IMG/VR virus record: IMGVR_UViG_3300029535_000005
Location: 1 to 59,997 of that record
Direction: 5' to 3' (one strand)
From: a virus
Length of the DNA stretch: 59,997 nucleotides
A program made the translations under genes and the position numbers. How positions within the stretch are numbered: the stretch's first letter is position 1; the number at the start of each line of letters is the position of its first letter. Under the pieces are notes generated by a model that did no database searches, was not told where the DNA came from, and saw only the letters and a program-made list of their open reading frames with translations. This document shows, piece after piece, positions 2,610 to 59,997 of this stretch.

Positions 2610-3200
2610 ATGAACTTTCCAAAATCTGAATTGAGTAAGCAGGATGCATTGCACCTATGGATTACTTGCCGTTCGGAGTATGCCAAGGAGCAAATGATTC
2701 TTTGCAACTATGGGATTGTTTTTTCGGTTATGAAGAATTTAAGCATTCCTTTGACTGACGAAGATATGTTTCAGACGGGAATCATCGGACTGTTAAAGGC
2801 GATAAATACTTTTGATGCTTCTAAGGGATATTCATTTTCAACCTATGCATTTCCGATTGTGAGAAATGAACTACTCTTGGTATTTCGTAAAAGCAAAAGG
2901 TCAGTAAAGGTAGCATTCTCACTGGATGATAACGTGGACACCGGAAATTGTGAGAGCGTTCCCTATGCGGAAATGATTCCAGACGGCAAAGATTATGAGG
3001 AAAATGTAGTGAATCTTATGCTTGCTCAGCAGATTTTTGAAAGGTTGGGTTCAAGGGAAAAACATATTTTTACCATGTTCTTTATCGAGAATAGAACGCA
3101 ATCTGAAATATCCGAAGCACTTGGAATTTCACAATCCTATATTTCAAGGATTATTAAAGGAATAGGAAAAATAAAAAAGAAAGGAAGAAAAGCCAAATGA
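2610..3200 (+). CDS. RNA polymerase sigma factor, sigma-70 family (group 3, SigF/G-like)
   Basis: Region 2 motif GIIGLLKAINTFDASKGYSFSTYAFPIVRNEL. Region 4 HTH motif RTQSEISEALGISQSYISRIIKG. Confidence 0.85.
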   Translation: MNFPKSELSKQDALHLWITCRSEYAKEQMILCNYGIVFSVMKNLSIPLTDEDMFQTGIIGLLKAINTFDASKGYSFSTYAFPIVRNELLLVFRKSKRSVKVAFSLDDNVDTGNCESVPYAEMIPDGKDYEENVVNLMLAQQIFERLGSREKHIFTMFFIENRTQSEISEALGISQSYISRIIKGIGKIKKKGRKAK

Positions 3201-3484
3201 GAGTTATTAGCCAGGACGGCACGATTGATTTGCCGTATGAACAGGTAATTATTACGAGACACGATAAAAGCATTTACTTAATGGAACATCTTACTGAGGA
3301 CGTTGAAATTGCTAAATATTCCACGGAAGAAAAAGCAAAAGAAGCCATGGAAGAATTAAGAATGGCTTATATGTGCCATAATCTTGTAAAGATGGGGCAG
3401 ACACCGCCAGATGGAATTGACGAAAAACTTACTATGGGTTTGAGTGGAGTATTTGAGTTTCCGGCGGATGAAGGATTGGAGTAG
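3197..3484 (+). CDS. Hypothetical protein
   Basis: 95-aa ORF, translationally coupled to the upstream gene (ATGA overlap). Confidence 0.6.
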   Translation: MRVISQDGTIDLPYEQVIITRHDKSIYLMEHLTEDVEIAKYSTEEKAKEAMEELRMAYMCHNLVKMGQTPPDGIDEKLTMGLSGVFEFPADEGLE

Positions 3485-3487
3485 CAT

Positions 3488-3886
3488 ATGGAAGTTATAT
3501 CATTTTTAGAATCCGTACAGAAAGGAATGGAAGATAACATTTACAACTTTTGCAGAGATGGGAAATGTAGCCAATGCGGTAACTGCTGTTCCAATCTTTT
3601 ACCAATGAGCAGAAAGGAAGTAGATGCAATTCACAGATATATCCGTAAGAACCATATCAAAGAGTGTAGGCACCTGCTTCCTACTGTGAATCGACCATAT
3701 GATATGACATGCCCTTTTCTTGATACGGACAAGAGTTGTGAGAAATGCAGAATCTATCCGGTACGACCGGAAATCTGCAAACAGTTCATTTGCGACAATG
3801 AGCAGAGAGCAAAGCACAATAGGACATTGTTGGGACAGACGAGACAGATTATTGATGTGAGGAGTGAGTTCTTTAATGAGACTTAA
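3488..3886 (+). CDS. YkgJ-type cysteine-cluster (CxxCxxCC) zinc/iron-chelating domain protein
   Basis: CSQCGNCCSN ... CPFLD ... CRIYPVRPEICKQF pattern. Confidence 0.8.
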   Translation: MEVISFLESVQKGMEDNIYNFCRDGKCSQCGNCCSNLLPMSRKEVDAIHRYIRKNHIKECRHLLPTVNRPYDMTCPFLDTDKSCEKCRIYPVRPEICKQFICDNEQRAKHNRTLLGQTRQIIDVRSEFFNET

Positions 3887-4601
3887 AGTTTTAGGTTCTG
3901 GTTCATCCGGTAATTGCTACATGCTGGAGAATGACAAGGAAGCTTTGATAATCGAAGCCGGGTTGCCTTTTATGGAAGTCAAGAAAGCACTGGATTTCAA
4001 TGTGATGAAAATTAAGGCTGTGATTACTACCCATTTCCATACTGACCATAGTCTTTATAGCTTACAATATGTGCAAGCTGGCATTCCTGTTTTTGAACCA
4101 TGCAGACCGCCGATAAAAGATTCTGAAATGCGTTTTAGAAAAGGAAATTTTGACATAAGAGCATTTGAAAATCGTGATAAATCTGGAAGATGGCTACATA
4201 ACAACGGAGACGGTTCAGAGTGTCCGTGCGTTGGGTTTTACATTACGCATCCAGAGATGGGAAGTCTTGTGTATGCAACAGACACGGAATACGTCAGATG
4301 GCGATTTAATGGTGTTAATCACATCATGGTGGAAGCCAACTACGATATGCAGTTTGTGAACCGAGAAGAACCAAATTACGAGCACAGATTAAGAGGTCAT
4401 ATGAGTTTACTAACGGCACTTGACTTTATTTCTACTAACGATAATCCGGCATTGCGAAATGTCGTTCTAATTCACTTATCAGATAAAAGCGGAGATCCCG
4501 CACTATTCAAACAAAAGACAGAAGAAACAGTTAAATATGGATCAGATGTTTACGTGGCGGAACGTGGATTAGAGGTTGATATGAACCTTTACCCGTTTTA
4601 A
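3876..4601 (+). CDS. MBL-fold metallo-hydrolase
   Basis: MRLKVLGSGSSGNCY N-terminus and the HxHxDH motif (HFHTDH). ATG 3876 lies 11 nt after AGGAG; the track's GTG 3864 is less likely. Confidence 0.85.
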   Translation: MRLKVLGSGSSGNCYMLENDKEALIIEAGLPFMEVKKALDFNVMKIKAVITTHFHTDHSLYSLQYVQAGIPVFEPCRPPIKDSEMRFRKGNFDIRAFENRDKSGRWLHNNGDGSECPCVGFYITHPEMGSLVYATDTEYVRWRFNGVNHIMVEANYDMQFVNREEPNYEHRLRGHMSLLTALDFISTNDNPALRNVVLIHLSDKSGDPALFKQKTEETVKYGSDVYVAERGLEVDMNLYPF

Positions 4602-14817: not shown

Positions 14818-16020
14818 TTGTTGAATTTTGCCATTGAAAATGGTATTATCGACATAGACACCATTCAGAAAAAAATTGAGATGAACGAAAGGAAGAAATT
14901 TATTGAAAAACACAATTATAGCATTTGGGAAGGAAAAGACGGTAAGTTTTACACATATTTGCCCGATGAAGAAAGCCAGAGAGGGAAAAAACTTGTAAAA
15001 AGAACATCTGAAAAGGCGATAGAAGACGAGATAGTGAAGTTTTATAAAGCCATGGAAGATGAACCGACAATCAGCCAAGTATATTCTAGCTGGATTTCTG
15101 AAAAATTGGAATATGGTGAAATAACAAGGCAGACAAAAGACAAGTACGAGACAAATTTTAAAAGATTTTTTGAAAATAAGTATTTGCCGATTGCAAATAG
15201 AAAAATCCGGTATATTGACGAAGAAATATTGGAATCATTCATAAAAACAGCTATTTCAAAGCTGGAACTTACGCAGAAAGCGTACTCCGATATGCGGATA
15301 TTGATTAACGGAATTTTCAAATATGCAAAGAAAAAACATTATACCAGCTTAAGCATAACCAGTTTCATGGGTGATTTGGAAATTTCGGAAAAGTCATTTA
15401 AAAGGAATCATAAGTCTGACAACGAATTAGTTTTTTCTAAGGATGAAGAGCTTTTGATTGAACAATTCATAATGGAAAACCAGCCTACATTGATTGAACT
15501 TGGAATTATTTTGGCATTTAAAACCGGACTAAGGGTTGGAGAAATATCCACGCTTTCATGGTCAGATATTGAAGAAAATAAGATACATATATCAAAGACA
15601 GAAATACGATACCGAGATGATGGTGGCAAATATGTGTTTGATGTTCAGAATTTTCCAAAGAGCGATGCCGGATTTAGAGATGTTATAATTACCGAAGATA
15701 CCAATGAACTTATGAGAAAAATAAAAATGCTTAACCCTTTTGGAGAATATATTTTTATGAAAAACGGTAAAAGGATAAAAGGACAAGCATTTACAAGACG
15801 TTTATATGTGATATGCGATAAGGTGGGAATTGGTGAGCGATCGATTCATAAGGCGAGAAAGACATATGCTACAAAGCTTATAGATGGAAATGTTCCAGAA
15901 TCTGTAATAAAAACGCAAATGGGTCATACTGATATTAGAACAACGCTTGACCATTATTATTTTAATAATAAAACAGAGAGTGAGATGCAAGAATACATTG
16001 CGAAAGCACTATCGATGTAA
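14818..16020 (+). CDS. int: Tyrosine recombinase (phage integrase)
   Basis: GLRVGEISTLSWSDI, HKARKTYATKLI and MGHTDIRTTLDHYY give the R..HxxR..Y catalytic pattern. TTG start; the N-terminal boundary is uncertain. Confidence 0.9.
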   Translation: MLNFAIENGIIDIDTIQKKIEMNERKKFIEKHNYSIWEGKDGKFYTYLPDEESQRGKKLVKRTSEKAIEDEIVKFYKAMEDEPTISQVYSSWISEKLEYGEITRQTKDKYETNFKRFFENKYLPIANRKIRYIDEEILESFIKTAISKLELTQKAYSDMRILINGIFKYAKKKHYTSLSITSFMGDLEISEKSFKRNHKSDNELVFSKDEELLIEQFIMENQPTLIELGIILAFKTGLRVGEISTLSWSDIEENKIHISKTEIRYRDDGGKYVFDVQNFPKSDAGFRDVIITEDTNELMRKIKMLNPFGEYIFMKNGKRIKGQAFTRRLYVICDKVGIGERSIHKARKTYATKLIDGNVPESVIKTQMGHTDIRTTLDHYYFNNKTESEMQEYIAKALSM

Positions 16021-16022
16021 AA

Positions 16023-16228
16023 GGTAACACGAGGTAACACCTTTAGGTGTAAAGAAACCTAGTATTTATGCGGGTTTGCGGGGTTTGATACCGAGTTCAA
16101 ATCTCCCTTCCGCTACTATTTTTTTAAAATTGAAAACCTTGTGAAGCCTTGATTTTACTGGAAGAAAGGAGATTCTGAATGGTGTCTTTTCTGAAAGTAA
16201 AAATCAAAGGTAACACCAAAGGTAACAC
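16023..16228 (+). mobile_element. Candidate attP. Two pairs of GGTAACAC arm-type repeats flank a tRNA-3'-end-like core.
   Basis: GGTAACAC occurs at 16023, 16033, 16209 and 16221. The core GAGTTCAAATCTCCCTTCCGCTA (16093-16115) resembles T-loop, T-stem, acceptor 3' strand and discriminator. It lies immediately downstream of int. Confidence 0.5.
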
Positions 16229-16240
16229 GAACAAATGTAT

Positions 16241-19878: not shown

Positions 19879-20121
19879 ATGAACAAATTTTTAGAAATAG
19901 TATACGCAAGTCAAATTGCAGATGAAGAACAGGGCGGGAAATGGCGTGAATTTTTTGAGCCGCTCATGGAGAGACTTAAGGGAATTGTGAGCGAAAGCGT
20001 TTATGATGAATTGCTCGAACTTCTTATTGACTGTACTACTGACAGCAACCGATTCTATGCCGTAGAGGGCATGAAACTTGCTATCGGCATTATGGACGGA
20101 ACTTATGTTCCGAAAGTATAA
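19879..20121 (+). CDS. Hypothetical protein
   Basis: 80 aa from ATG 19879. Confidence 0.55.
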   Translation: MNKFLEIVYASQIADEEQGGKWREFFEPLMERLKGIVSESVYDELLELLIDCTTDSNRFYAVEGMKLAIGIMDGTYVPKV

Positions 20122-22885: not shown

Positions 22886-22903
22886 AGAATCCCTTTCTGG
22901 TCT

Positions 22904-22962
22904 GCCATCATCAGAGCCGGGAGACCATCCCGCGGCTTACGGTCATTTCTGACCGTTTCGGC
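22904..22962 (-). ncRNA. Hammerhead-ribozyme-like motif A (type II permutation; GUA cleavage triplet; extra U before stem II)
   Basis: The minus strand reads GCC-GAA-A[CGGTCA-GAAA-TGACCG]T-A / [AGCCGCGGGA-TGGTC-TCCCGGCT]-CTGATGA-T-GGC. It lies in the 5' leader of the cassette. Confidence 0.65.
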
Positions 22963-23036
22963 TTTTTTATCTATGTTCGATATAAAAACGCTTTCTTGTC
23001 CTCCTGGAATAATATTTTTGTTTTCCTGTTGGTATT

Positions 23037-41455: not shown

Positions 41456-41880
41456 AAGAACAGAGAGAGCTTACATGGGAAACGTATTGCACGGAAATCC
41501 GCCCGTTTTGGCTTTTAGTTACAAAGGGGTACGGATTTACTGTGCATGACATAGACACGTCTTGTCCGGCCGATTTAAAGCCATATGCAGACGTTTACAA
41601 CTTAGAGAAAAAGCAAAAAGACAATGATATGTGGATGTGGTTTGGAACATATGGATTGTCTGCAGTATCGGTGGCAGTAGAACATTGTCTTGCGGGTAAA
41701 AAAGCTAAATCAAAGTATGTGGACAAGCCTATCACAGAGCATAGCTTGTTAAACGATTCTGAAATGACAGAAGAGGAAATTCAGAAACAAAGAGAATTAT
41801 TTGTGGCAAAACTCAAAATTATGCAATCAAATTATGAGTTGAGCCACCCAAAGAAAGAAGAGGTGCCACATGAAAATTAA
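41389..41880 (+). CDS. Predicted -1 frameshift extension (gpGT-like) of the tail assembly chaperone
   Basis: Slippery T TTT TTA at 41389-41395. The -1 frame is open from 41383 to 41880. An alternative slip site is GGAAAAAG at 41445-41452. Confidence 0.5.
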   Translation, partial: FFIKTAQSRAERSGEENYQEKVEEQRELTWETYCTEIRPFWLLVTKGYGFTVHDIDTSCPADLKPYADVYNLEKKQKDNDMWMWFGTYGLSAVSVAVEHCLAGKKAKSKYVDKPITEHSLLNDSEMTEEEIQKQRELFVAKLKIMQSNYELSHPKKEEVPHEN

Positions 41881-42880
41881 AGGTATTGATGTTTCCGGGT
41901 ACAATGGAAATATTAACTGGTCAAAAGCAGCAGAAAACGGCGTTGAATTTGCCATTTTGAAAGTAATCCGAAAAGATTTGCAGCCGGACAAGTATTTTGA
42001 AGCAAACTGGACAGGATCAACAGAAGCTGGCGTTCCGGTGCAGGGCGTATATAATTACAGCTACGCAACCAACGCAGAAAAAGCGCAGACCGATGCGCAA
42101 AGAGTGATCGAAGTTCTTGCCGGAAGAAATGTGATGGTGTGGCTGGATGTAGAGGATAAGTGCCAGCAGAATATTGGCGATAAGATTGTCTCTATTATCA
42201 ATGAATATCAGAAGATCATTGAAGCCGCAGGGTGCAAATTTGGTGTATACACAGGTCTGTCTTTTTACAACAGCTATATCAAGCCATATCTTGAGCATAT
42301 TGATTGCCCGTTTTGGGTCGCAAAATACCCGTCCAGTACGCCTATGATGATTACGGCAGACGCACCAGAAGACAAGAAGCCTGATATTCTTCATGAACTT
42401 TACGGATGGCAGTACAGTTCAAAGGGATTTGTAGCCGGTGTTTCCGGATGCGTCGATCTGAATGAACTGTATGTAGCGGTAGACACGGTAAATGTAATGC
42501 CAGAGCCAGAGAACACGCTTCATAAGGTTGGAGAGGAAATCACGGTTTCTTCTTACTACAAATCTTCCACGGCTGGTATTGGAGATGCGATCATCAAGTA
42601 TGCTTCCGGAACGATTACACGAATCAAGGCGGGTACGCATAATCCATATTGCTTTTCAAAAAATGGAGTTGCAGTAGGTTGGTGCAACGATGGAGATATT
42701 CGATCAACGGATGCTTCTGTGCAGTCTACAGATAAAAAGACAACGTATACGGTACGACGCGGCGATACACTTTCAAAGATCGCAAAAGAAAACAATGTAA
42801 CGGTTGCAAAATTGCAGAAAGACAACGGGATCAAGAACCCAAACAAAATTTATGTAGGGCAGAAAATTTTGATTCAGTAA
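41870..42880 (+). CDS. Endolysin: GH25 muramidase with a C-terminal LysM domain
   Basis: MKIKGIDVSGYNGNINWSKAAENGVEFAILK (GH25). YTVRRGDTLSKIAKENNVTVAKLQKDNGIKNPNKIYVGQKILI (LysM). Confidence 0.9.
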   Translation: MKIKGIDVSGYNGNINWSKAAENGVEFAILKVIRKDLQPDKYFEANWTGSTEAGVPVQGVYNYSYATNAEKAQTDAQRVIEVLAGRNVMVWLDVEDKCQQNIGDKIVSIINEYQKIIEAAGCKFGVYTGLSFYNSYIKPYLEHIDCPFWVAKYPSSTPMMITADAPEDKKPDILHELYGWQYSSKGFVAGVSGCVDLNELYVAVDTVNVMPEPENTLHKVGEEITVSSYYKSSTAGIGDAIIKYASGTITRIKAGTHNPYCFSKNGVAVGWCNDGDIRSTDASVQSTDKKTTYTVRRGDTLSKIAKENNVTVAKLQKDNGIKNPNKIYVGQKILIQ

Positions 42881-50834: not shown

Positions 50835-51035
50835 ATGGTCAATGCCAAAATTCGTGAATTTGAAAATGATATTATAAATTACATCAATGCGAATAGTGAT
50901 ATTCCAATAGAAGTTAAACATCTGGTGATTAAGGATATTTTACACCAGGTAGAAGCGGAAGCAAACCGGCACGTTATCGCCGAGCGGGAGCAGATGCAGG
51001 AAAATCTTAAAAAGGAGAGCGAGGATCATGAATAA
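50835..51035 (+). CDS. Hypothetical protein
   Basis: 66-aa ORF. Confidence 0.55.
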   Translation: MVNAKIREFENDIINYINANSDIPIEVKHLVIKDILHQVEAEANRHVIAEREQMQENLKKESEDHE

Positions 51036-52794
51036 AGCATATAACCGTATCAACTGGGAGAATTACCCAAGCGATGCTACGCCTTTGAATGAAGCGAATC
51101 TCAACAGTTTGGACAGTGCCACAGATACCATTGACGACCGTGTGATTACGCTTGACACAACCAAGGCAACAAAAACAGAGGTTGCTACACTTGTATCAGA
51201 TGTGACATTTGAGGAATCTACAGGAATTATTACCATTACGAAGAAAAATGGCTCTAGGGTTACCATTGACACACAGATGGAGAAAATTGCTGTCAACTTT
51301 ACTTATAACCCGACTACACAGCAGATTATACTGACTCTGATCGATGGCACGAAGCAGTACATAGATTTATCGGCGCTGATTACGCAGTATGAATTTTTAG
51401 ACACGGATACAGTAGCATTTATCATCGATACAGACGGCAAGGTGTCAGCTATCGTAAAAGAGGGAAGCATCAAAGAAGAACATCTGGAACCAAACTATCT
51501 GGCAAAGGTCAAAGTAGAGGTTGCAAAGGCGCAAACAAGCGCAAGCAATGCTGCAACATCCGAGGATAATGCAAGAAGTGCGGCAACAGAGGCGCAGGAT
51601 AGTGCGACAGCGGCGGCAACATCCAAAAGCAATGCACAGACAAGTGCGGCGGCAGCGGCACAATCAGAATCTAATGCAAAGGCATCTGAGAATGTGGCAA
51701 AATCAAGCAGAGATTCAGCTGTTGAATCAGCACAGACCGCGACAGCGGCGGCAACATCCGCCAGTGAATCAGCAATTACAGCTAGTGAGAAAGCCGATAT
51801 TGCCACACGAAAAGCAACAGAAATTATCGGAAAAGCAGAATCTGCAGCAGATAGTGCAACCAAAGCACAGAGTTATGCCGTTGGCGGTACCGGCAGCCGG
51901 GAGGGAGAGGACTCTGATAATGCTAAATATTATTATCAGCAGGCAAAAGACGTATCAGAGGGACTAAAAGGTGGATTGCAGCCGCATGGCACGGTGGCTT
52001 TTGCAGATCTTCCGGCGCTTCCGGATGTCAATGCAGGATGGATGTACAATATTTCGGATGAATTTACGACCACGGACGATTTTAAAGAGGGCTCCGGCAA
52101 TGCAGTTCCCGCCGGCGCGAATATCTACAAAACGTCAGACGGAAAGTGGGATGTTCTGGCCGGTACCCCGGTGACGGGGGTCAAGGGTGCAAAAGAAACA
52201 TCCTATCGGCGAGGAAATGTCAATCTCACCCCAGAAAACATTGGGGCAGTAGCGACAGGTGGAGACACAGCGAGCAATGTCACATCATTTACAAGTAGTG
52301 ATGTGGCAGATGGATCAGCGCCATCGTGGACAAACGTTGCTACACTGACAAGTGGCGAAACGCATACTTCTCTTTTTGCGAAGGTATCGCAGATGTTTAA
52401 AAACGTGCGGTACTTGTATAAGATGTTCGGTACTACCGACATATCCTCTATTGGTGGCGGAACGGTAACGGGGGCTATCTCGTCGCAAAACAAAGCTTTA
52501 GCGCAAACTGTATTTTACGTTAATTCAAATAAAGAGCATACACCGGCATCTATAGTGGCCATATCTCGTCCTATAGCTTATACTAACGGAGTAGCAGAAC
52601 TTGACATATCGAGTTTTAAAATAACACCTATAATAGTGTTGTCTGTCAACGTTTTAGGATCGGAGATTACTCATGGTGCTCTTGCAAAAACGATTAACAA
52701 TGGGACTGCTCTTCGTTCTGTGCTGAATAACACGGAGTACAATGGCACGCTGATCACAGTTTTTACGGTAATGTGTTCTATGCCAGACGTATAG
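51028..52794 (+). CDS. Tail fiber or receptor-binding protein
   Basis: 588 aa. Ala/Ser/Thr-rich coiled segment (AKAQTSASNAATSEDNARSAATEAQDSATAAATS...) followed by globular C-terminal domains. Confidence 0.7.
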   Translation: MNKAYNRINWENYPSDATPLNEANLNSLDSATDTIDDRVITLDTTKATKTEVATLVSDVTFEESTGIITITKKNGSRVTIDTQMEKIAVNFTYNPTTQQIILTLIDGTKQYIDLSALITQYEFLDTDTVAFIIDTDGKVSAIVKEGSIKEEHLEPNYLAKVKVEVAKAQTSASNAATSEDNARSAATEAQDSATAAATSKSNAQTSAAAAAQSESNAKASENVAKSSRDSAVESAQTATAAATSASESAITASEKADIATRKATEIIGKAESAADSATKAQSYAVGGTGSREGEDSDNAKYYYQQAKDVSEGLKGGLQPHGTVAFADLPALPDVNAGWMYNISDEFTTTDDFKEGSGNAVPAGANIYKTSDGKWDVLAGTPVTGVKGAKETSYRRGNVNLTPENIGAVATGGDTASNVTSFTSSDVADGSAPSWTNVATLTSGETHTSLFAKVSQMFKNVRYLYKMFGTTDISSIGGGTVTGAISSQNKALAQTVFYVNSNKEHTPASIVAISRPIAYTNGVAELDISSFKITPIIVLSVNVLGSEITHGALAKTINNGTALRSVLNNTEYNGTLITVFTVMCSMPDV

Positions 52795-53233: not shown

Positions 53234-53439
53234 TTTAAACGTTTTTGTTGACCTAAAGTGACAAATCAGACGATTTGTGTCGAAACTTGCGACCGAAATG
53301 ATTTGAATAATGCTGGCAAAATTTGTAAAATAAAATTGTCCGATAAGGGCACTTCAAGTTCTGGAGAGGGGGCGATGTTTGGCGATTCATTGCCCTCTCA
53401 AATGTTACTGGTAAATAATGGTAATTTTTTTGTGTGGGG

Positions 53440-53468
53440 TTGACTGCAAAGAACGTACGTTCTATAAT
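53440..53468 (+). promoter_or_regulatory. Consensus sigma-A promoter with a GAAC-N4-GTTC (LexA/Cheo-type) palindrome in its spacer
   Basis: TTGACT 53440-53445, GAACGTACGTTC 53451-53462, TATAAT 53463-53468 (17-nt spacing). Confidence 0.65.
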
Positions 53469-53509
53469 GACATTAACATTATCGGTTGCAGAGATTGGAG
53501 GAGAATAAA

Positions 53510-53650
53510 ATGGGGGAAAATGAGTGCAATAAGGAAACAGCGTTTTACAAGGAAAAAATAACTGAAATGGTCGTTAAGTGCGACAACGAGCGATTTTTGA
53601 AATTTTTATATAACACAATACTTTCATTCAAAAAAAAGTGGGGCATTTAG
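53510..53650 (+). CDS. 46-aa protein under the LexA-box promoter (candidate antirepressor)
   Basis: TTGGAGGAGAATAAA RBS before the ATG. Sequence MGENECNKETAFYKEKITEMVVKCDNERFLKFLYNTILSFKKKWGI. Confidence 0.5.
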   Translation: MGENECNKETAFYKEKITEMVVKCDNERFLKFLYNTILSFKKKWGI

Positions 53651-53663
53651 TGCCCCTCTTTTT
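53630..53663. terminator. Bidirectional intrinsic terminator shared by the convergent genes
   Basis: An A-run, GGGGCA-TTTAG-TGCCCC, then a T-run. It overlaps both stop codons. Confidence 0.65.
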
Positions 53664-53997
53664 CATGCCAATAGGTTATATTGTCAAATATAGTCTGTCT
53701 ATGTTCTTTGCTAAGTTTCATTAGCATTTTTAAGTTATCGAGCAATTCACTATCTGACATAAGGTCTGGAAGAATATCTTGTGCGTTTTCTAAATTATCT
53801 TCCCAACCCATTAAATAAGATGGAGAAACTTCAAGAACTTTCCCAATAATTTCTATTTTATCACTTGGAATATTAGTAATAATGTTGTTTTCATATTTAT
53901 ATAGTGTTTGCTTTGAAACTTTTATTTTCTCTGCAAGCTCTACTTGTGAAATACCTAAAAGCTCTCTCTGCTTTTTTATCTTATCTCCGATTGTCAT
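53647..53997 (-). CDS. cI-like repressor: XRE HTH with no S24 peptidase domain
   Basis: MTIGDKIKKQRELLGISQVELAEKIKVSKQTLYKYENN...SPSYLMGW. Only 116 aa. Confidence 0.85.
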   Translation of the reverse strand: MTIGDKIKKQRELLGISQVELAEKIKVSKQTLYKYENNIITNIPSDKIEIIGKVLEVSPSYLMGWEDNLENAQDILPDLMSDSELLDNLKMLMKLSKEHRQTIFDNITYWHEKEGH

Positions 53998-54021: not shown

Positions 54022-54118
54022 GTAACTTTATTATAACACAAAAAAGTTACTCGTCAAGAAAAAAATAACTTGACAAGTTACCAAAATGGAATATAATAAA
54101 AGTAACTTCAAAAGTTAC
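54022..54118. promoter_or_regulatory. Lysogeny switch: divergent promoters with GTAACTT-N3-AAGTTAC operators
   Basis: Plus strand: TTGACA 54070-54075, 16 nt, TATAAT 54092-54097. Minus strand: TTGACG (54052-54057), 16 nt, TATAAT (54030-54035). Operators at 54065-54081 and 54102-54118, with half-sites at 54022 and 54044. Confidence 0.7.
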
Positions 54119-54140: not shown

Positions 54141-54347
54141 ATGGTTGATACAAACAAACTTCGCGGCGTTATTGCTGAAAATGGCAAAACACAGGCTGAT
54201 GTTGCGGAAATGATTGGAGTTACGCCAAAAACATTTTATATGAGAATGAGTAAGGGCGTTTTTGGAAGCGACGAAATTCAGGTTATGATTGATAACCTTC
54301 ACATCCAAAATCCAATGGATATTTTTTTTGCAAAGAAAGTAACTTAA
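54141..54347 (+). CDS. Cro-like HTH regulator
   Basis: 68 aa, divergent from the repressor. Sequence KLRGVIAENGKTQADVAEMIGVTPKTFYMRMSKG. Confidence 0.7.
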   Translation: MVDTNKLRGVIAENGKTQADVAEMIGVTPKTFYMRMSKGVFGSDEIQVMIDNLHIQNPMDIFFAKKVT

Positions 54348-54377: not shown

Positions 54378-54632
54378 TTGGAAAAATCAAGATATTCTGT
54401 TTTGGATTCATCTGGAAAAGCAACGATTGTTGAGCGTAAAGACGGAAGATATATTGACATTGAAGAAATGGCGCAGCATGTCGCATTTAATGTTTTGGAC
54501 GATTACAGCAAAATTCTTAATGGCGAAAAGAAAATTGATGAGACAAACATTAGATTGTCTATCAATGTTCTCAACGCCGTTGCTCCGTTAGCAAAATATT
54601 TTAGAACGGGCTGTGCCTACGGAAAGGATTAG
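54378..54632 (+). CDS. Hypothetical protein (TTG start)
   Basis: 84-aa ORF that overlaps a convergent small ORF. Confidence 0.4.
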   Translation: MEKSRYSVLDSSGKATIVERKDGRYIDIEEMAQHVAFNVLDDYSKILNGEKKIDETNIRLSINVLNAVAPLAKYFRTGCAYGKD

Positions 54633-54839: not shown

Positions 54840-55580
54840 TTGGAGAAAACGGACGAGTTAGTGAAAGTCAATTTTGATACACAGACAGTATCGGCAAGAG
54901 AACTGCACGATCAGTTACATATTGGAACAAGATTTAACGATTGGTTCCCACGTATGACAGAATATGGATTTGTAGAGGGAACAGACTTTTACTCAAAAAT
55001 GAGTAAAACCGATAATGGTGGCAGACCATCAACAGATTACGAAATTTCTGTAGACATGGCAAAGCAGATTTGCATGATTCAGAGAACACCAGAGGGTAAA
55101 GCAGTCCGCCAGTACCTCATCGACTTGGAAAAGGCGTGGAACACACCAGAGCAGGTATTTGCCAGAGCGTTAAAGATGGCTGACGAGAAAATCAACAGCC
55201 TTAAGGAAAACAACACAAGGCTGATTGCGGAAAATCAGCGTATGAGACCGAAGGAAATTTTTGCAGATGCGGTGTCGGCAAGCCACACATCAATTCTTAT
55301 CGGAGATTTGGCAAAGCTGATTTGCCAGAACGGCTATCAGATAGGACAGAAGCGGTTGTTTGAGTGGTTGCGTGAGAATAACTTCCTTATTAAATGTGGT
55401 TCATCGAAGAATATGCCACAGCAGAGATATGTTGAACAGGGGTTATTCGAGGTAAAGGAAAGCAACGTGCAGAATCCGGATGGATCAGTAAGGATCACTC
55501 GGACAACTAAGGTAACTGGAAAAGGACAGATATATTTTGTCAACAAATTCTTGAACAGAGGTTATTTTTATGAAAAATAG
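54840..55580 (+). CDS. Phage antirepressor (AntA-like N-terminal and KilAC C-terminal domains)
   Basis: VSARELHDQLHIGTRFNDWFPRMTEYGFVEGTDFY and IFADAVSASHTSILIGDLAKLICQNGYQIGQKRLFEWLRENNFLIK. Confidence 0.8.
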   Translation: MEKTDELVKVNFDTQTVSARELHDQLHIGTRFNDWFPRMTEYGFVEGTDFYSKMSKTDNGGRPSTDYEISVDMAKQICMIQRTPEGKAVRQYLIDLEKAWNTPEQVFARALKMADEKINSLKENNTRLIAENQRMRPKEIFADAVSASHTSILIGDLAKLICQNGYQIGQKRLFEWLRENNFLIKCGSSKNMPQQRYVEQGLFEVKESNVQNPDGSVRITRTTKVTGKGQIYFVNKFLNRGYFYEK

Positions 55581-55642
55581 AAAGGAAAACTGGTAGATTC
55601 CAATAACTCATATGGAATTGGAAAGATTAACAGGAGGAATTC

Positions 55643-56029
55643 ATGGATAAACAAACGAACATTGCTTTAAGAAAAACGTTAGATCAGATCGGCGCAAGCC
55701 ATTCGCTCAAAGGATACACATACACAATTAGAGCGATAGAGAAATGTCTGGACGACAGGGATGCGCTTAGATGTGTTATGAAGGAAATTTATGCAAAAAT
55801 CGCAGAAGAGAACGGAACTACCGCATCCAAAGTAGAAAGAAACATCCGGAACTTAATAGAGGTCACATGGATAAATGGCAATGTGAATGCGATCAATGAG
55901 ATTTTTGGCTATACGGTTTCGCCGAAAAAGGGGAAGCCAACCAATTCAGAATTTATTGCGGTAATAACAGATTTTGTGTCCTTGCACGGGCAGGAAATTG
56001 AAAGTGATTCTTATAAGTGGCGGGAGTGA
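55643..56029 (+). CDS. Spo0A C-terminal (DNA-binding) domain protein without a receiver domain
   Basis: KGYTYTIRAIEKC...IYAKIAEENGTTASKVERNIRNLIEVTW...INEIFGYTVSPKKGKPTNSEFIAVI closely parallels the Spo0A effector domain. Confidence 0.85.
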   Translation: MDKQTNIALRKTLDQIGASHSLKGYTYTIRAIEKCLDDRDALRCVMKEIYAKIAEENGTTASKVERNIRNLIEVTWINGNVNAINEIFGYTVSPKKGKPTNSEFIAVITDFVSLHGQEIESDSYKWRE

Positions 56030-56037
56030 AGTTCGTA

Positions 56038-56312
56038 TGAAGAAGTTGGCAAGGGTGATTGAATTTGTAGGCGCGGCGATCTTTTTTCTTTGTATGTGTG
56101 CGGATGCAACGGAAAATCCTATTGTAGCGGTACCGACCATAATCAGCTTACTCTTATTGTATGCCGGATCAAGAATTGAAGGAGGATGGCAGGATGCGGA
56201 AGAGATTGTCGAAGATCATTATTATTATGTTGATGGTGATGACACTGACGATGGTATTACCTACATTACATACGACAGCAACGGAACCGAGCGATACATG
56301 GATTTCAAATGA
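56038..56312 (+). CDS. Possible small membrane protein
   Basis: MKKLARVIEFVGAAIFFLCMC... It overlaps the next gene by about 120 nt, so it is doubtful. Confidence 0.3.
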
Positions 56313-59431: not shown

Positions 59432-59997
59432 ATGGGAGAAGTTATCAAATCTTACAAAGGATTTAACAAAAATATGACTTGTCGTGGCTTTCAGTACGAA
59501 GAAGGAAAAGAGTATGAGGAAGAAATCGTAGAAGTTTGCGATCATGGATTTCACGCTTGCGAGTATCCGCTTGATTGCTTGAATTATTATTATCCAAATG
59601 AAAGCGTATACCACGAGGTAGAGCAGAGCGGAGAAATCCAGAAACATAATGATGATACTAAGGTAGAATCTACAAAAATTAAGATCGGAGCAGAAATTAG
59701 CATTGCGGGTCTTGTTAAAGCTGCAATCGAATATACAGTAAAACGTGTAAAAAAGGACGCTGAAAGCGATGAAAAGCATGGAGCATCCTCGGCAACCGGA
59801 TACAAGGGAGCATCCTCGGCAACCGGCACCTATGGAGCATCCTCGGCAACCGGCACCTATGGAGCATCCTCGGCAACCGGATACTATGGAGCATCCTCGG
59901 CAACCGGATACTATGGAGCATCCTCGGCAACCGGAGACAAGGGAGCATCCTCGGCAACCGGAGACTATGGAGCATCCTCGGCAACCGGATACTGTGG
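59432..59997 (+). CDS. Repeat protein, N-terminal part (continues at 2..574): Cys/His N-domain (DUF7666-like by recollection) followed by GASSATGxx repeats
   Basis: ATG 59432 overlaps the upstream stop (TAAATG). Sequence MGEVIKSYKGFNKNMTCRGFQYEEGKEYEEEIVEVCDHGFHACEYPLDCLNYY... The frame is open to the window end. Confidence 0.8.
   Translation, partial: MGEVIKSYKGFNKNMTCRGFQYEEGKEYEEEIVEVCDHGFHACEYPLDCLNYYYPNESVYHEVEQSGEIQKHNDDTKVESTKIKIGAEISIAGLVKAAIEYTVKRVKKDAESDEKHGASSATGYKGASSATGTYGASSATGTYGASSATGYYGASSATGYYGASSATGDKGASSATGDYGASSATGYC
59780..59997 (+). repeat. 27-bp tandem repeat, 8 units; the last two are duplicated at the window start
   Basis: Units start at 59780, 59807 ... 59969. 59926-59997 equals 1-72 exactly. 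Confidence 0.95.

Follow-up and report, generated by a model that had tools for sequence, protein, structure and literature searches.

What use does a temperate phage have for a Spo0A that lacks a receiver domain? The question is raised by a gene at positions 55643-56029 of a 59,997-nt stretch of viral DNA (positions 1 to 59,997 of IMG/VR record IMGVR_UViG_3300029535_000005, hereafter the window), which makes up one temperate siphovirus genome of ~60 kb with 40.9% G+C. An earlier note, made from the letters alone, had taken the product of this gene to be the DNA-binding effector domain of Spo0A without its receiver domain, encoded in the first early operon just after the antirepressor. Effector-only spo0A in gut phages is an already published gene class. 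New here are a conserved cis target, a promoter in the immunity region that we call P0A, and a testable circuit built around it. The gene itself consists of the following elements.

55643-56029, + strand: Spo0A_C gene, encoding a stand-alone effector domain of 128 amino acids (aa) from an ATG start, with the Spo0A_C fold at residues ~5-114
55632-55637, + strand: ribosome-binding site (RBS) of the Spo0A_C gene, AGGAGG, 5 nt 5' of the ATG

A hidden Markov model (HMM) search against the Spo0A_C family, which the earlier note had named as a check, was significant: the 128-aa protein matched Pfam PF08769 with an E-value of 1.7e-34 and 118 bits (cutoff 25), its residues 11-110 covering model positions 3-102 of 104. 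The profile of full-length Spo0A (TIGR02875, spore_0_A) was matched at positions 148-257 of 262 only and with 111 bits against a cutoff of 200, and because the match is confined to that part and scores below the cutoff, only the effector half is encoded by 55643-56029. The phage open reading frame (ORF) begins at about effector residue 149 of Spo0A. Aligned without gaps to residues 154-262 of Bacillus subtilis Spo0A, the phage protein is identical at 48 of 109 positions (44%) and keeps the motifs TTAS.VER.IR..IEV.W and GYTVS..K.KPTNSEFIA, and both solved Spo0A effector domains match it without gaps at E~1e-25. The AlphaFold model of the phage protein has a pLDDT of 89.6, and its only significant PDB matches were 1LQ1 and 1FC3 (TM 0.79-0.90, root-mean-square deviation 1.5-2.6 Å, or 1.5-1.8 Å for 1LQ1), so that profile and fold both uphold the identification as the DNA-binding effector domain of Spo0A. 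The absence of the receiver domain was likewise confirmed, since an HMM of Spo0A receiver domains retrieved nothing from all six frames of the window. The window holds a single copy of Spo0A_C. The last 14 residues of the phage protein are not Spo0A-like; they lengthen helix F and carry a tail conserved in the phage clade (residues 116-128, G116.EI...SYKW.E).

The product belongs to the Spo0A_C domain family, and its gene to the truncated phage spo0A genes already published as a class. Lacking a receiver domain and falling short of the TIGR02875 equivalog cutoff, the product is no Spo0A orthologue. Nor is the gene set as that of a Spo0A orthologue would be: it is transcribed from the phage early operon, after the antirepressor gene (Ant), and the spo0A-type promoter found 2.3 kb upstream of it serves a different small gene. 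Spo0A_C directly follows Ant in every relative examined. No + strand terminator is predicted that would separate it from the P_R-like promoter (54070-54097), which makes it an early-operon gene, in agreement with the placement first proposed for it.

The class was described by Schwartz et al. 2023 (mBio, PMC10294663), who reported 29 virome spo0A homologues with an effector but without a receiver domain and proposed that these act without host signals. Their truncated phage spo0A genes resemble that of the window in being effector-only, in coming from gut phages of spore-formers and in the phosphorelay-independent action proposed for them, and the window's gene family is very probably among the 29 sequences. 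Their work is a gene census with an alignment, and term searches of the paper (PMC10294663) gave no match for 0A boxes, binding sites or genomic context; the look-alike of the spo0A promoter and the LexA-box cassette described below are new here. The window protein is also comparable to the isolated Spo0A DNA-binding domains of B. subtilis and C. difficile (1LQ1, 1FC3), with which it shares the fold (TM up to 0.90), 44% identity, the recognition helix and GKPTNSEFIA. Unlike these, it is naturally stand-alone and phage-encoded, and it differs by R177I, R226N, A168H, A223T and its 14-residue tail.

When 120 sequences of the phage clade were compared with the effector domains of 61 cellular Spo0A proteins, it emerged that V212, E213, R214, I216, R217, I220, E221 and W224 of the recognition helix are invariant in both sets, as are F236-T239, the G245-A254 signature (GKPTNSEFIA) and D258. 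Three of these residues, E213, R214 and R217, reportedly make base contacts, as Zhao et al. are said to have found in 2002. Helix E is the region of Spo0A that activates sigma-A, as is known from the B. subtilis literature of the Moran and Youngman laboratories, and the window protein retains the residues of helix E and the C-terminus that are invariant in cellular Spo0A (G227, F236-T239, G245-A254 and D258). A subgroup of 126-aa Spo0A_C proteins has D/V/W at positions 207/209/210.

The median dN/dS of Spo0A_C is 0.18 and 0.17 in two subgroups, indicating purifying selection, and its nearest cellular counterparts, full-length Spo0A proteins from Lachnospiraceae, reach only ~51% identity. Because of that distance and the purifying selection, we regard the phage gene as an old, maintained lineage and not as a recent capture. 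A large protein collection yielded 479 matches at E≤1e-5, and the best 120 of these 479 are all 114-132 aa long with Spo0A_C as their sole domain; one variant occurs on at least 1000 contigs. At least 202 contigs in IMG/VR carry Spo0A_C relatives, and in >200 viral contigs the gene has an intact frame and a fixed position. One relative is located at 654-675 kb of contig JAKSHG010002168.1 (GCA_027494395.1). Scanning a genome collection retrieved only full-length host spo0A genes (~51% identity) and no prophages, and the one organism label among the matches is that of a single metagenome-assembled genome named 'Ruminococcus sp.'. Exact matches to the integrase came only from contigs of 1 kb.

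Several members of the wider family depart from this simple architecture. Among the best 150 cluster representatives, 30 carry Spo0A_C in tandem, with 2-4 domains per polypeptide (examples among P0121-P0178 are P0122, with 454 aa and 4 domains, and P0178, with 1003 aa and 3 domains), an arrangement of which we know no description. A further 59 of the 150 have a short N-terminal extension in place of the receiver domain. GenBank matches labelled 'Bacteriophage sp.' were dropped as independent phage cases, as 5 of the 7 examined encode full-length Spo0A with a receiver. These are 'UNVERIFIED Bacteriophage sp.' records (L141-L145: MT835504, MT835737, MT835718, MT835781 and MT835715) whose Spo0A is 255-286 aa long; their neighbouring genes look ordinary, and the records are probably bacterial fragments within a phage collection.

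Whether the phage genome itself offers this protein a target was addressed by searching it for 0A boxes. The search, also proposed in the earlier note, had a divided outcome: the motif is not enriched (counts are given below), and one box, at 53278, is conserved in position. The 0A box at 53278 is perfect in 88 of the 90 relatives that could be evaluated, those with only ~69% identity in Spo0A_C among them. Another box, at 56207, was discarded as a conserved site, since it lies within coding sequence and is kept only in near-identical relatives. The box at 53278 is part of a promoter region with the following elements.

53278-53298, + strand: invariant 21-mer TGTCGAAACTTGCGACCGAAA, holding the perfect 0A box (53278-53284) and a host-shared 14-mer (53278-53291)
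53291-53297, + strand: second 0A-like box GANCGAA, inside the 21-mer
53303-53331, + strand: P0A core promoter, -35 TTGAAT, 17-nt spacer, -10 TAAAAT (53326), 9 of 12 to consensus

The P0A -35 element starts 25 nt from the start of the box, and the offsets of -35 and -10 are fixed in 87 of 87 relatives. Within the 21-mer, GA[C/T/A]CGAAA is the one variation commonly seen; it falls at the N of the TGNCGAA consensus and for that reason suggests that a second, weaker 0A box abuts the -35. With a predicted transcription start site at ~53338, box 1 would lie at -60 to -54 and box 2 at -47 to -41.

A counterpart of this arrangement was found in host DNA, in a survey of 43 Lachnospiraceae species that took in 700 kb surrounding their spo0A genes. 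In this DNA, the 14-mer TGTCGAAACTTGCG occurred 26 times, every time on the spo0A strand and just upstream of spo0A, with unconserved flanks. All 26 sites are followed by TTGCAx at 25 nt from the box start and by TATAAT 17-18 nt further on. The phage window has one copy of the 14-mer, against a chance expectation of ~4e-4. Because the 14-mer is specific to spo0A promoters, the geometry is the same and a chance match is improbable, P0A is, as judged from its sequence, a look-alike or captured copy of the autoregulated host spo0A promoter. The sign of the regulation predicted for it leans slightly to activation, because the boxes at -60/-41 lie upstream of a weak core (9 of 12) and the invariant helix-E residues are retained. 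Separately, a second same-strand copy of a relaxed motif, TGTCGAANNTTGCG, lies ~3.7-4.1 kb upstream of the Spo0A_C-coding part of host spo0A in four Lachnospiraceae genomes (L009, L016, L025 and L042), where it may be another Spo0A-controlled promoter.

Downstream of P0A lies a compact cassette that ends at the phage repressor.

53332-53399, + strand: P0A transcript leader, an invariant segment to 53364 that includes CUUCAAGUUCUGG, then a hairpin at 53365-53399
53440-53468, + strand: P2 promoter, TTGACT-17-TATAAT, 11 of 12 to consensus
53451-53462, no strand assigned: Gram-positive LexA (Cheo) box GAACGTACGTTC, of the GAAC-N4-GTTC type, within the P2 spacer
53510-53650, + strand: 46-aa ORF, candidate small antirepressor, with RBS GGAGGAG at 53497-53503
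53640-53656, no strand assigned: intrinsic terminator, bidirectional, separating the small ORF from the convergent repressor gene
53647-53997, - strand: CI-like repressor of 116 aa, HTH_3 plus a short C-terminal domain, no S24 peptidase domain

The invariant segment of the leader is conserved above neighbouring coding sequence, and the hairpin has a z of -4.1 with compensatory changes (13 pairs with double changes), which come from two lineages only. In the consensus fold, invariant CUUCAA pairs with the small-ORF RBS UUGGAG, both sides being invariant. No Rfam family was found for the leader. The idea that the conserved leader is the phage attachment site (attP) was rejected, since it is intact in a 1.22-Mb contig (L047) and the real attP lies beside the integrase. 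LexA boxes number 2 in the window against 0.54 expected, and the box in P2 is present in 87 of 87 relatives. The second LexA-type box, GAACTTATGTTC, lies elsewhere, at 20099-20110 within a - strand small-ORF region.

The small ORF and the repressor vary together. Five small-ORF alleles pair 1:1 with five repressor alleles over 14 loci, independently of Spo0A_C subtype, a pairing that could stem from adjacency alone. All five repressor alleles encode proteins of 112-124 aa with HTH_3 only, and because there is no S24 peptidase domain, the repressor is not self-cleaving. No Pfam or NCBIfam family was found for the small ORF, and the Pfam SinI domain, tried on the small ORFs, gave no match. Allele B of the small ORF aligns end-to-end with the repressor tails of alleles B/D/E (z 4.5-5.4); alleles A, D and E do not. 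A further idea, that P0A transcribes antisense through the repressor gene, is weakened by the bidirectional terminator at 53640-53656. The series of P0A, P2, small ORF and repressor is laid out like a LexA-controlled antirepressor module with an added Spo0A input, in which, by analogy with known modules, the 46-aa protein would be the antirepressor.

Is the cassette tied to the Spo0A_C gene? An IMG/VR scan with the 14-mer retrieved at least 120 loci, of which by rough estimate ~40 of 120 look like chance matches, a number to be expected for a 14-mer given the size of the collection. Three recurrent cassette types were recognized: T1 (the type of the window), T2 and T3. All share the order of 0A box, -35 at the same offset, -10, leader beginning TTGTCCGA...CTTCAAGTT, LexA-box promoter, small ORF, terminator and convergent XRE repressor; the LexA box is present in 24 of 27 T2 and in 16 of 16 T3 cassettes, and in T3 the 0A boxes are canonical and in tandem, TGTCGAA-TGT-TGTCGAA. 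A sensitive HMM search for Spo0A_C in the loci with at least 4.5 kb downstream gave the following counts.

T1 cassettes: full Spo0A_C 9, short form 0, none 7
T2 cassettes: full Spo0A_C 0, short form 0, none 14
T3 cassettes: full Spo0A_C 0, short form 7, none 1

The short form in T3 is a 100-aa protein that comprises the helix-turn-helix (HTH) two-thirds of Spo0A_C (model positions 1-67 of 104; Pfam E=7e-11, hhalign 93.5%). It keeps E-R-x-I-R, has lost helix E and the GKPTNSEF signature, and occupies the equivalent early-operon slot (T3 loci listed: L244, L247, L249, L274, L277, L324, L330 and L338; at L330 the short ORF lies 2456-2758 from the 0A box). In the two T1 loci without Spo0A_C that were inspected (L239 and L326), an unrelated ORF of ~230 aa with no confident family, 3262-3969 from the 0A box, fills the slot between Ant and the small hydrophobic ORF. 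Because related phages hold the cassette without Spo0A_C, the cassette probably senses primarily the phosphorylated Spo0A of the host (Spo0A~P). The phage Spo0A_C must then be an optional addition that has arisen in two forms, and since gene and cassette are separable, as a relative with the gene but without P0A (L115) illustrates, it must have targets outside the cassette too.

The reading that we prefer is a composite one, in which a phosphorelay-independent Spo0A domain acts both on the phage's own P0A cassette and on host 0A boxes; we put its chances of being correct at about even. The receiver-less domain would bind TGTCGAA-type 0A boxes without input from the phosphorelay. For isolated Spo0A DNA-binding domains, phosphorylation is not required for binding to genuine 0A-box targets (PMC3485338), and an effector domain turning 0A-box genes on or blocking them is in keeping with this biochemistry. 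Binding of the phage protein to the P0A box is predicted from the conserved recognition residues and the conserved perfect box in the same genome. Because the only conserved 0A box lies in the immunity region, inside a look-alike of the spo0A promoter, the phage's own switch is a likely target besides host genes.

On the composite reading, events would differ between the lysogen and the lytic cycle. In a lysogen, LexA and host Spo0A~P would control the 46-aa gene, and the cassette would pass host signals to the immunity module, DNA damage by way of LexA and sporulation entry by way of Spo0A~P. Spo0A_C would be made only once the early (P_R) operon fires, at infection or on prophage derepression. 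With that operon on, the phage domain would occupy the P0A box whatever the phosphorylation state in the host; it would also occupy host 0A-box promoters, including the host spo0A promoter, with which P0A has the extended site in common, and in this way would fix, replace or override the host sporulation signal. Forcing sporulation seems the least likely outcome, because Spo0A_C is co-expressed with lytic replication genes.

A number of observations weigh against the composite reading. TGTCGAA occurs 6 times in the window where 7.5±2.8 would be expected, which is no enrichment, and TGNCGAA 39 times where 35±5.7 would be expected. In the phage clade, the four substitutions A168H, R177I, A223T and R226N all fall at residues that are (near-)invariant in cells; P167 and P199 are lost, and T194, A215, H218 and A219 are switched or relaxed. 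The 0A boxes at spo0A of B. subtilis act in a complex, largely repressive way (PMC12090719). On the modelled leader fold, P0A transcripts, unlike those from P2, may be translationally masked at the small-ORF RBS, which would reverse the output. The small ORF resembles the C-terminus of the repressor only weakly (hhalign P=0.0017, probability 15.7%). Finally, a P0A-type cassette occurs without any Spo0A_C in 22 of 38 evaluable loci, and L115 is the reverse case, with Spo0A_C next to a different immunity module and without P0A; an obligate coupling of Spo0A_C and P0A was accordingly rejected.

The separability of gene and cassette suits an explanation in which the protein is directed at the host only, blocking or mistiming host 0A-box genes so that the cell stays a phage factory, with P0A an unrelated sensor of Spo0A~P. 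This is the reading of the earlier note and the published one (PMC10294663, where ectopic phage sporulation-sigma homologues are reported to cut spore yield), and the DNA-contact motif is identical to that of cellular Spo0A. However, the same recognition helix cannot avoid a perfect, conserved 0A box of its own genome where both are present, and cassette phages contain two independent forms of Spo0A_C, full in T1 and short in T3, although shared ancestry could explain the latter. We consider action on the host alone unlikely.

The switched residues and the clade-specific tail raise another explanation, that of a competitive blocker, which would bind 0A boxes without activating and keep Spo0A~P off both host promoters, preventing sporulation, and P0A, so that the lytic programme is shielded from the sporulation signal of the host. 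T3 relatives encode the HTH two-thirds only, so binding without canonical activation seems enough there, and occupancy of phage DNA by Spo0A can repress in the φ29 family (PMC2731898). Against this, none of the helix-E and C-terminal residues invariant in cellular Spo0A has been lost from the window protein, and the boxes at -60 and -41 are clear of the core promoter, whereas occlusion usually overlaps the core. A pure blocker is in our estimation improbable.

We give little credence to a re-targeted regulator, in which the fold would read a different, phage-specific site, for instance with a phage sigma factor on middle or late genes. E213, R214, R217 and the whole core of the recognition helix are invariant, the genome has a perfect and conserved 0A box, and many relatives have Spo0A_C but no sigma factor; the points in its favour are that PHROGs list the family as 'unknown function', that some backbone-region residues differ (as do those at 207/209/210, D/V/W, in the 126-aa subgroup) and that the same genome encodes a sigma factor. 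That the gene is a functionless, decaying fragment of a captured host spo0A, as its being a truncated version of a cellular gene might suggest, is effectively refuted by the selection analysis (dN/dS ~0.18 in two subgroups) and is further contradicted by the intact frame and fixed position in >200 viral contigs, the identity of only ~51% to the closest cellular Spo0A and the conserved tail of its own.

The surroundings of the cassette and of Spo0A_C are those of a temperate phage. The immunity and early genes follow the order CI-like repressor (- strand), Cro-like HTH, ORF84, Ant, Spo0A_C and small hydrophobic ORF, then an SLT transglycosylase, an SSB-like protein and an SbcC-like ATPase. Genes for recombination and replication encode a RecT-like protein, a sigma-70-family protein, an MBL hydrolase, ERCC4, a DnaD-like loader, a helicase/methylase and a tyrosine integrase. 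Five tRNAs come next, and then the structural and lysis genes, with terminase, portal, major head protein, endolysin, tape measure and tail fibres. The features of this region and of the integration module are listed here.

54030-54097, both strands: divergent switch promoters, with repeated operator-like GTAACT/AGTTAC sites
54057 to 54030, - strand: P_RM-like promoter, 11 of 12 to consensus, TG-extended
54070-54097, + strand: P_R-like promoter, 12 of 12 to consensus
54141-54347, + strand: Cro-like HTH protein of 68 aa, first early-operon gene
54378-54632, + strand: ORF84, an early ORF of 84 aa with no family
54840-55580, + strand: antirepressor Ant, with AntA and KilAC domains
56037-56312, + strand: small hydrophobic ORF of 91 aa, the conserved neighbour 3' of Spo0A_C, which stays where Spo0A_C is replaced
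14818-16020, + strand: tyrosine integrase, supporting a temperate lifestyle
16085-16117 (region 16022-16231), + strand: candidate attP core, tRNA 3'-end-like ACCGAGTTCAAATCTCCCTTCCGCTAC, flanked by two pairs of AGGTAACAC arm-type repeats
2610-3200, + strand: sigma-70-family factor, resembling SigB/F/G and below all cutoffs

The segment at 16085-16117 is the probable attP core, judging by its repeats and tRNA-like end, and many related contigs break in the attP region, 98-127 nt past the integrase stop. One locus that diverges after the integrase (L226) continues there with a group II intron and more phage genes, not with host DNA; the intron's reverse transcriptase/maturase is encoded at 11894-13213 of L226, just downstream of integrase and attP.

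The sigma gene had been described in the earlier note as SigF/G-like. The gene is real, and it scores below every sporulation-sigma cutoff in NCBIfam (SigB/F/G subfamily, 103 against 234; SigF, 90.5 against 321; SigG, 90.3 against 372). It is found only in some relatives, an ORF of 86-88 aa filling its slot elsewhere. Its link to Spo0A_C is weak, and an obligate coupling of the two was rejected, as relatives keep Spo0A_C while replacing the sigma gene.

Other observations concern the rest of the genome. A Type II hammerhead ribozyme lies between genes at 22896-22963 on the - strand, in a small-ORF region; it matches Rfam RF02276 with 56.4 bits (gathering score 37, E=5e-9). Just after the SbcC-like gene, at 59778-59997, a tandem array of at least 8 copies of a 27-bp unit, ATGGAGCATCCTCGGCAACCGGATACT (91% matches), runs off the end of the window; many related contigs end nearby, ~4.2-4.4 kb past the Spo0A_C start, and the array could represent replication-origin iterons or a mere assembly breakpoint. 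The endolysin gene (41870-42880) is located upstream of the tape-measure gene and not at the end of the late region, and the N-terminus of the distal tail-fibre protein (51028-52794) matches a PHROG annotated 'kinase' (phrog_17196, E=7e-41). One 105-kb IMG/VR contig among the relatives is a concatemer.

Parts of the circuit have precedents in several known systems. Phages φ29 and Nf (Meijer 2005; Castilla-Llorente 2009, PMC2731898) also carry host Spo0A sites in their DNA that couple development to sporulation, a function established there and predicted here. φ29 differs in being virulent, in having multiple boxes that overlap and repress early promoters and origins, and in having no Spo0A homologue, whereas the window is temperate, has its own Spo0A domain and carries a single promoter-upstream site, copying the host spo0A promoter, in its immunity region. 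LexA-controlled antirepressors (such as 186 Tum, Gifsy and GIL01, of which PMC9437464 gives a summary) likewise combine a non-cleavable repressor with a small gene under a LexA-box promoter beside the immunity region. Compared with these modules, the window has an extra upstream Spo0A-box promoter as a second host input, and the antirepressor role of its 46-aa ORF is predicted by analogy. Phages of Alphaproteobacteria that sense CtrA (Mascolo et al. 2022, PMC9437464) similarly exploit a host master developmental regulator through phage promoter sites; the regulator family, the host phylum and the proposed outcome, lytic deferment in virulent-like phages, are different.

The SinI/SinR pair of B. 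subtilis provides a cellular parallel. According to PMC3163267 and PMC3917956 (the latter for Lewis et al. 1998), sinI is under Spo0A control and its product shares the C-terminal interaction helices of the repressor. As in the window, an XRE-type HTH repressor of ~110 aa is paired with a small protein. In contrast to SinI/SinR, the genes of the window are convergent and not in tandem, there is no Pfam SinI match, and the homology of the small ORF to the repressor tail is suggestive only. We found no description in the literature of a combination of a φ29-type 0A box, a LexA antirepressor, SinI/SinR and CtrA-like sensing.

Such a combination would amount to a two-input prophage induction module in a family of abundant gut-Clostridia prophages, in which the gene of a small SinI-like antirepressor, convergent to that of a non-cleavable XRE repressor, stands under both a LexA-repressed promoter and a copy of the host spo0A promoter, and the fate of the prophage is set by DNA damage or by commitment to sporulation. 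Some members would add a Spo0A domain as a phosphorelay-independent feedback, by which the decision would be locked and the Spo0A regulon of the host rewired. We put this fuller version forward tentatively, as possible but doubtful. The effector-only phage spo0A in any case gains a concrete candidate target, a 60-bp promoter, invariant in hundreds of phage contigs, that mirrors the host spo0A promoter. If the cassette works as proposed, it would explain why a phage might profit from an always-on Spo0A domain, and the module would be a phage counterpart of the SinI/SinR circuit. Sporulation entry would then join DNA damage as a host signal for temperate phages of Lachnospiraceae-like gut bacteria, whose transmission and persistence sporulation governs.

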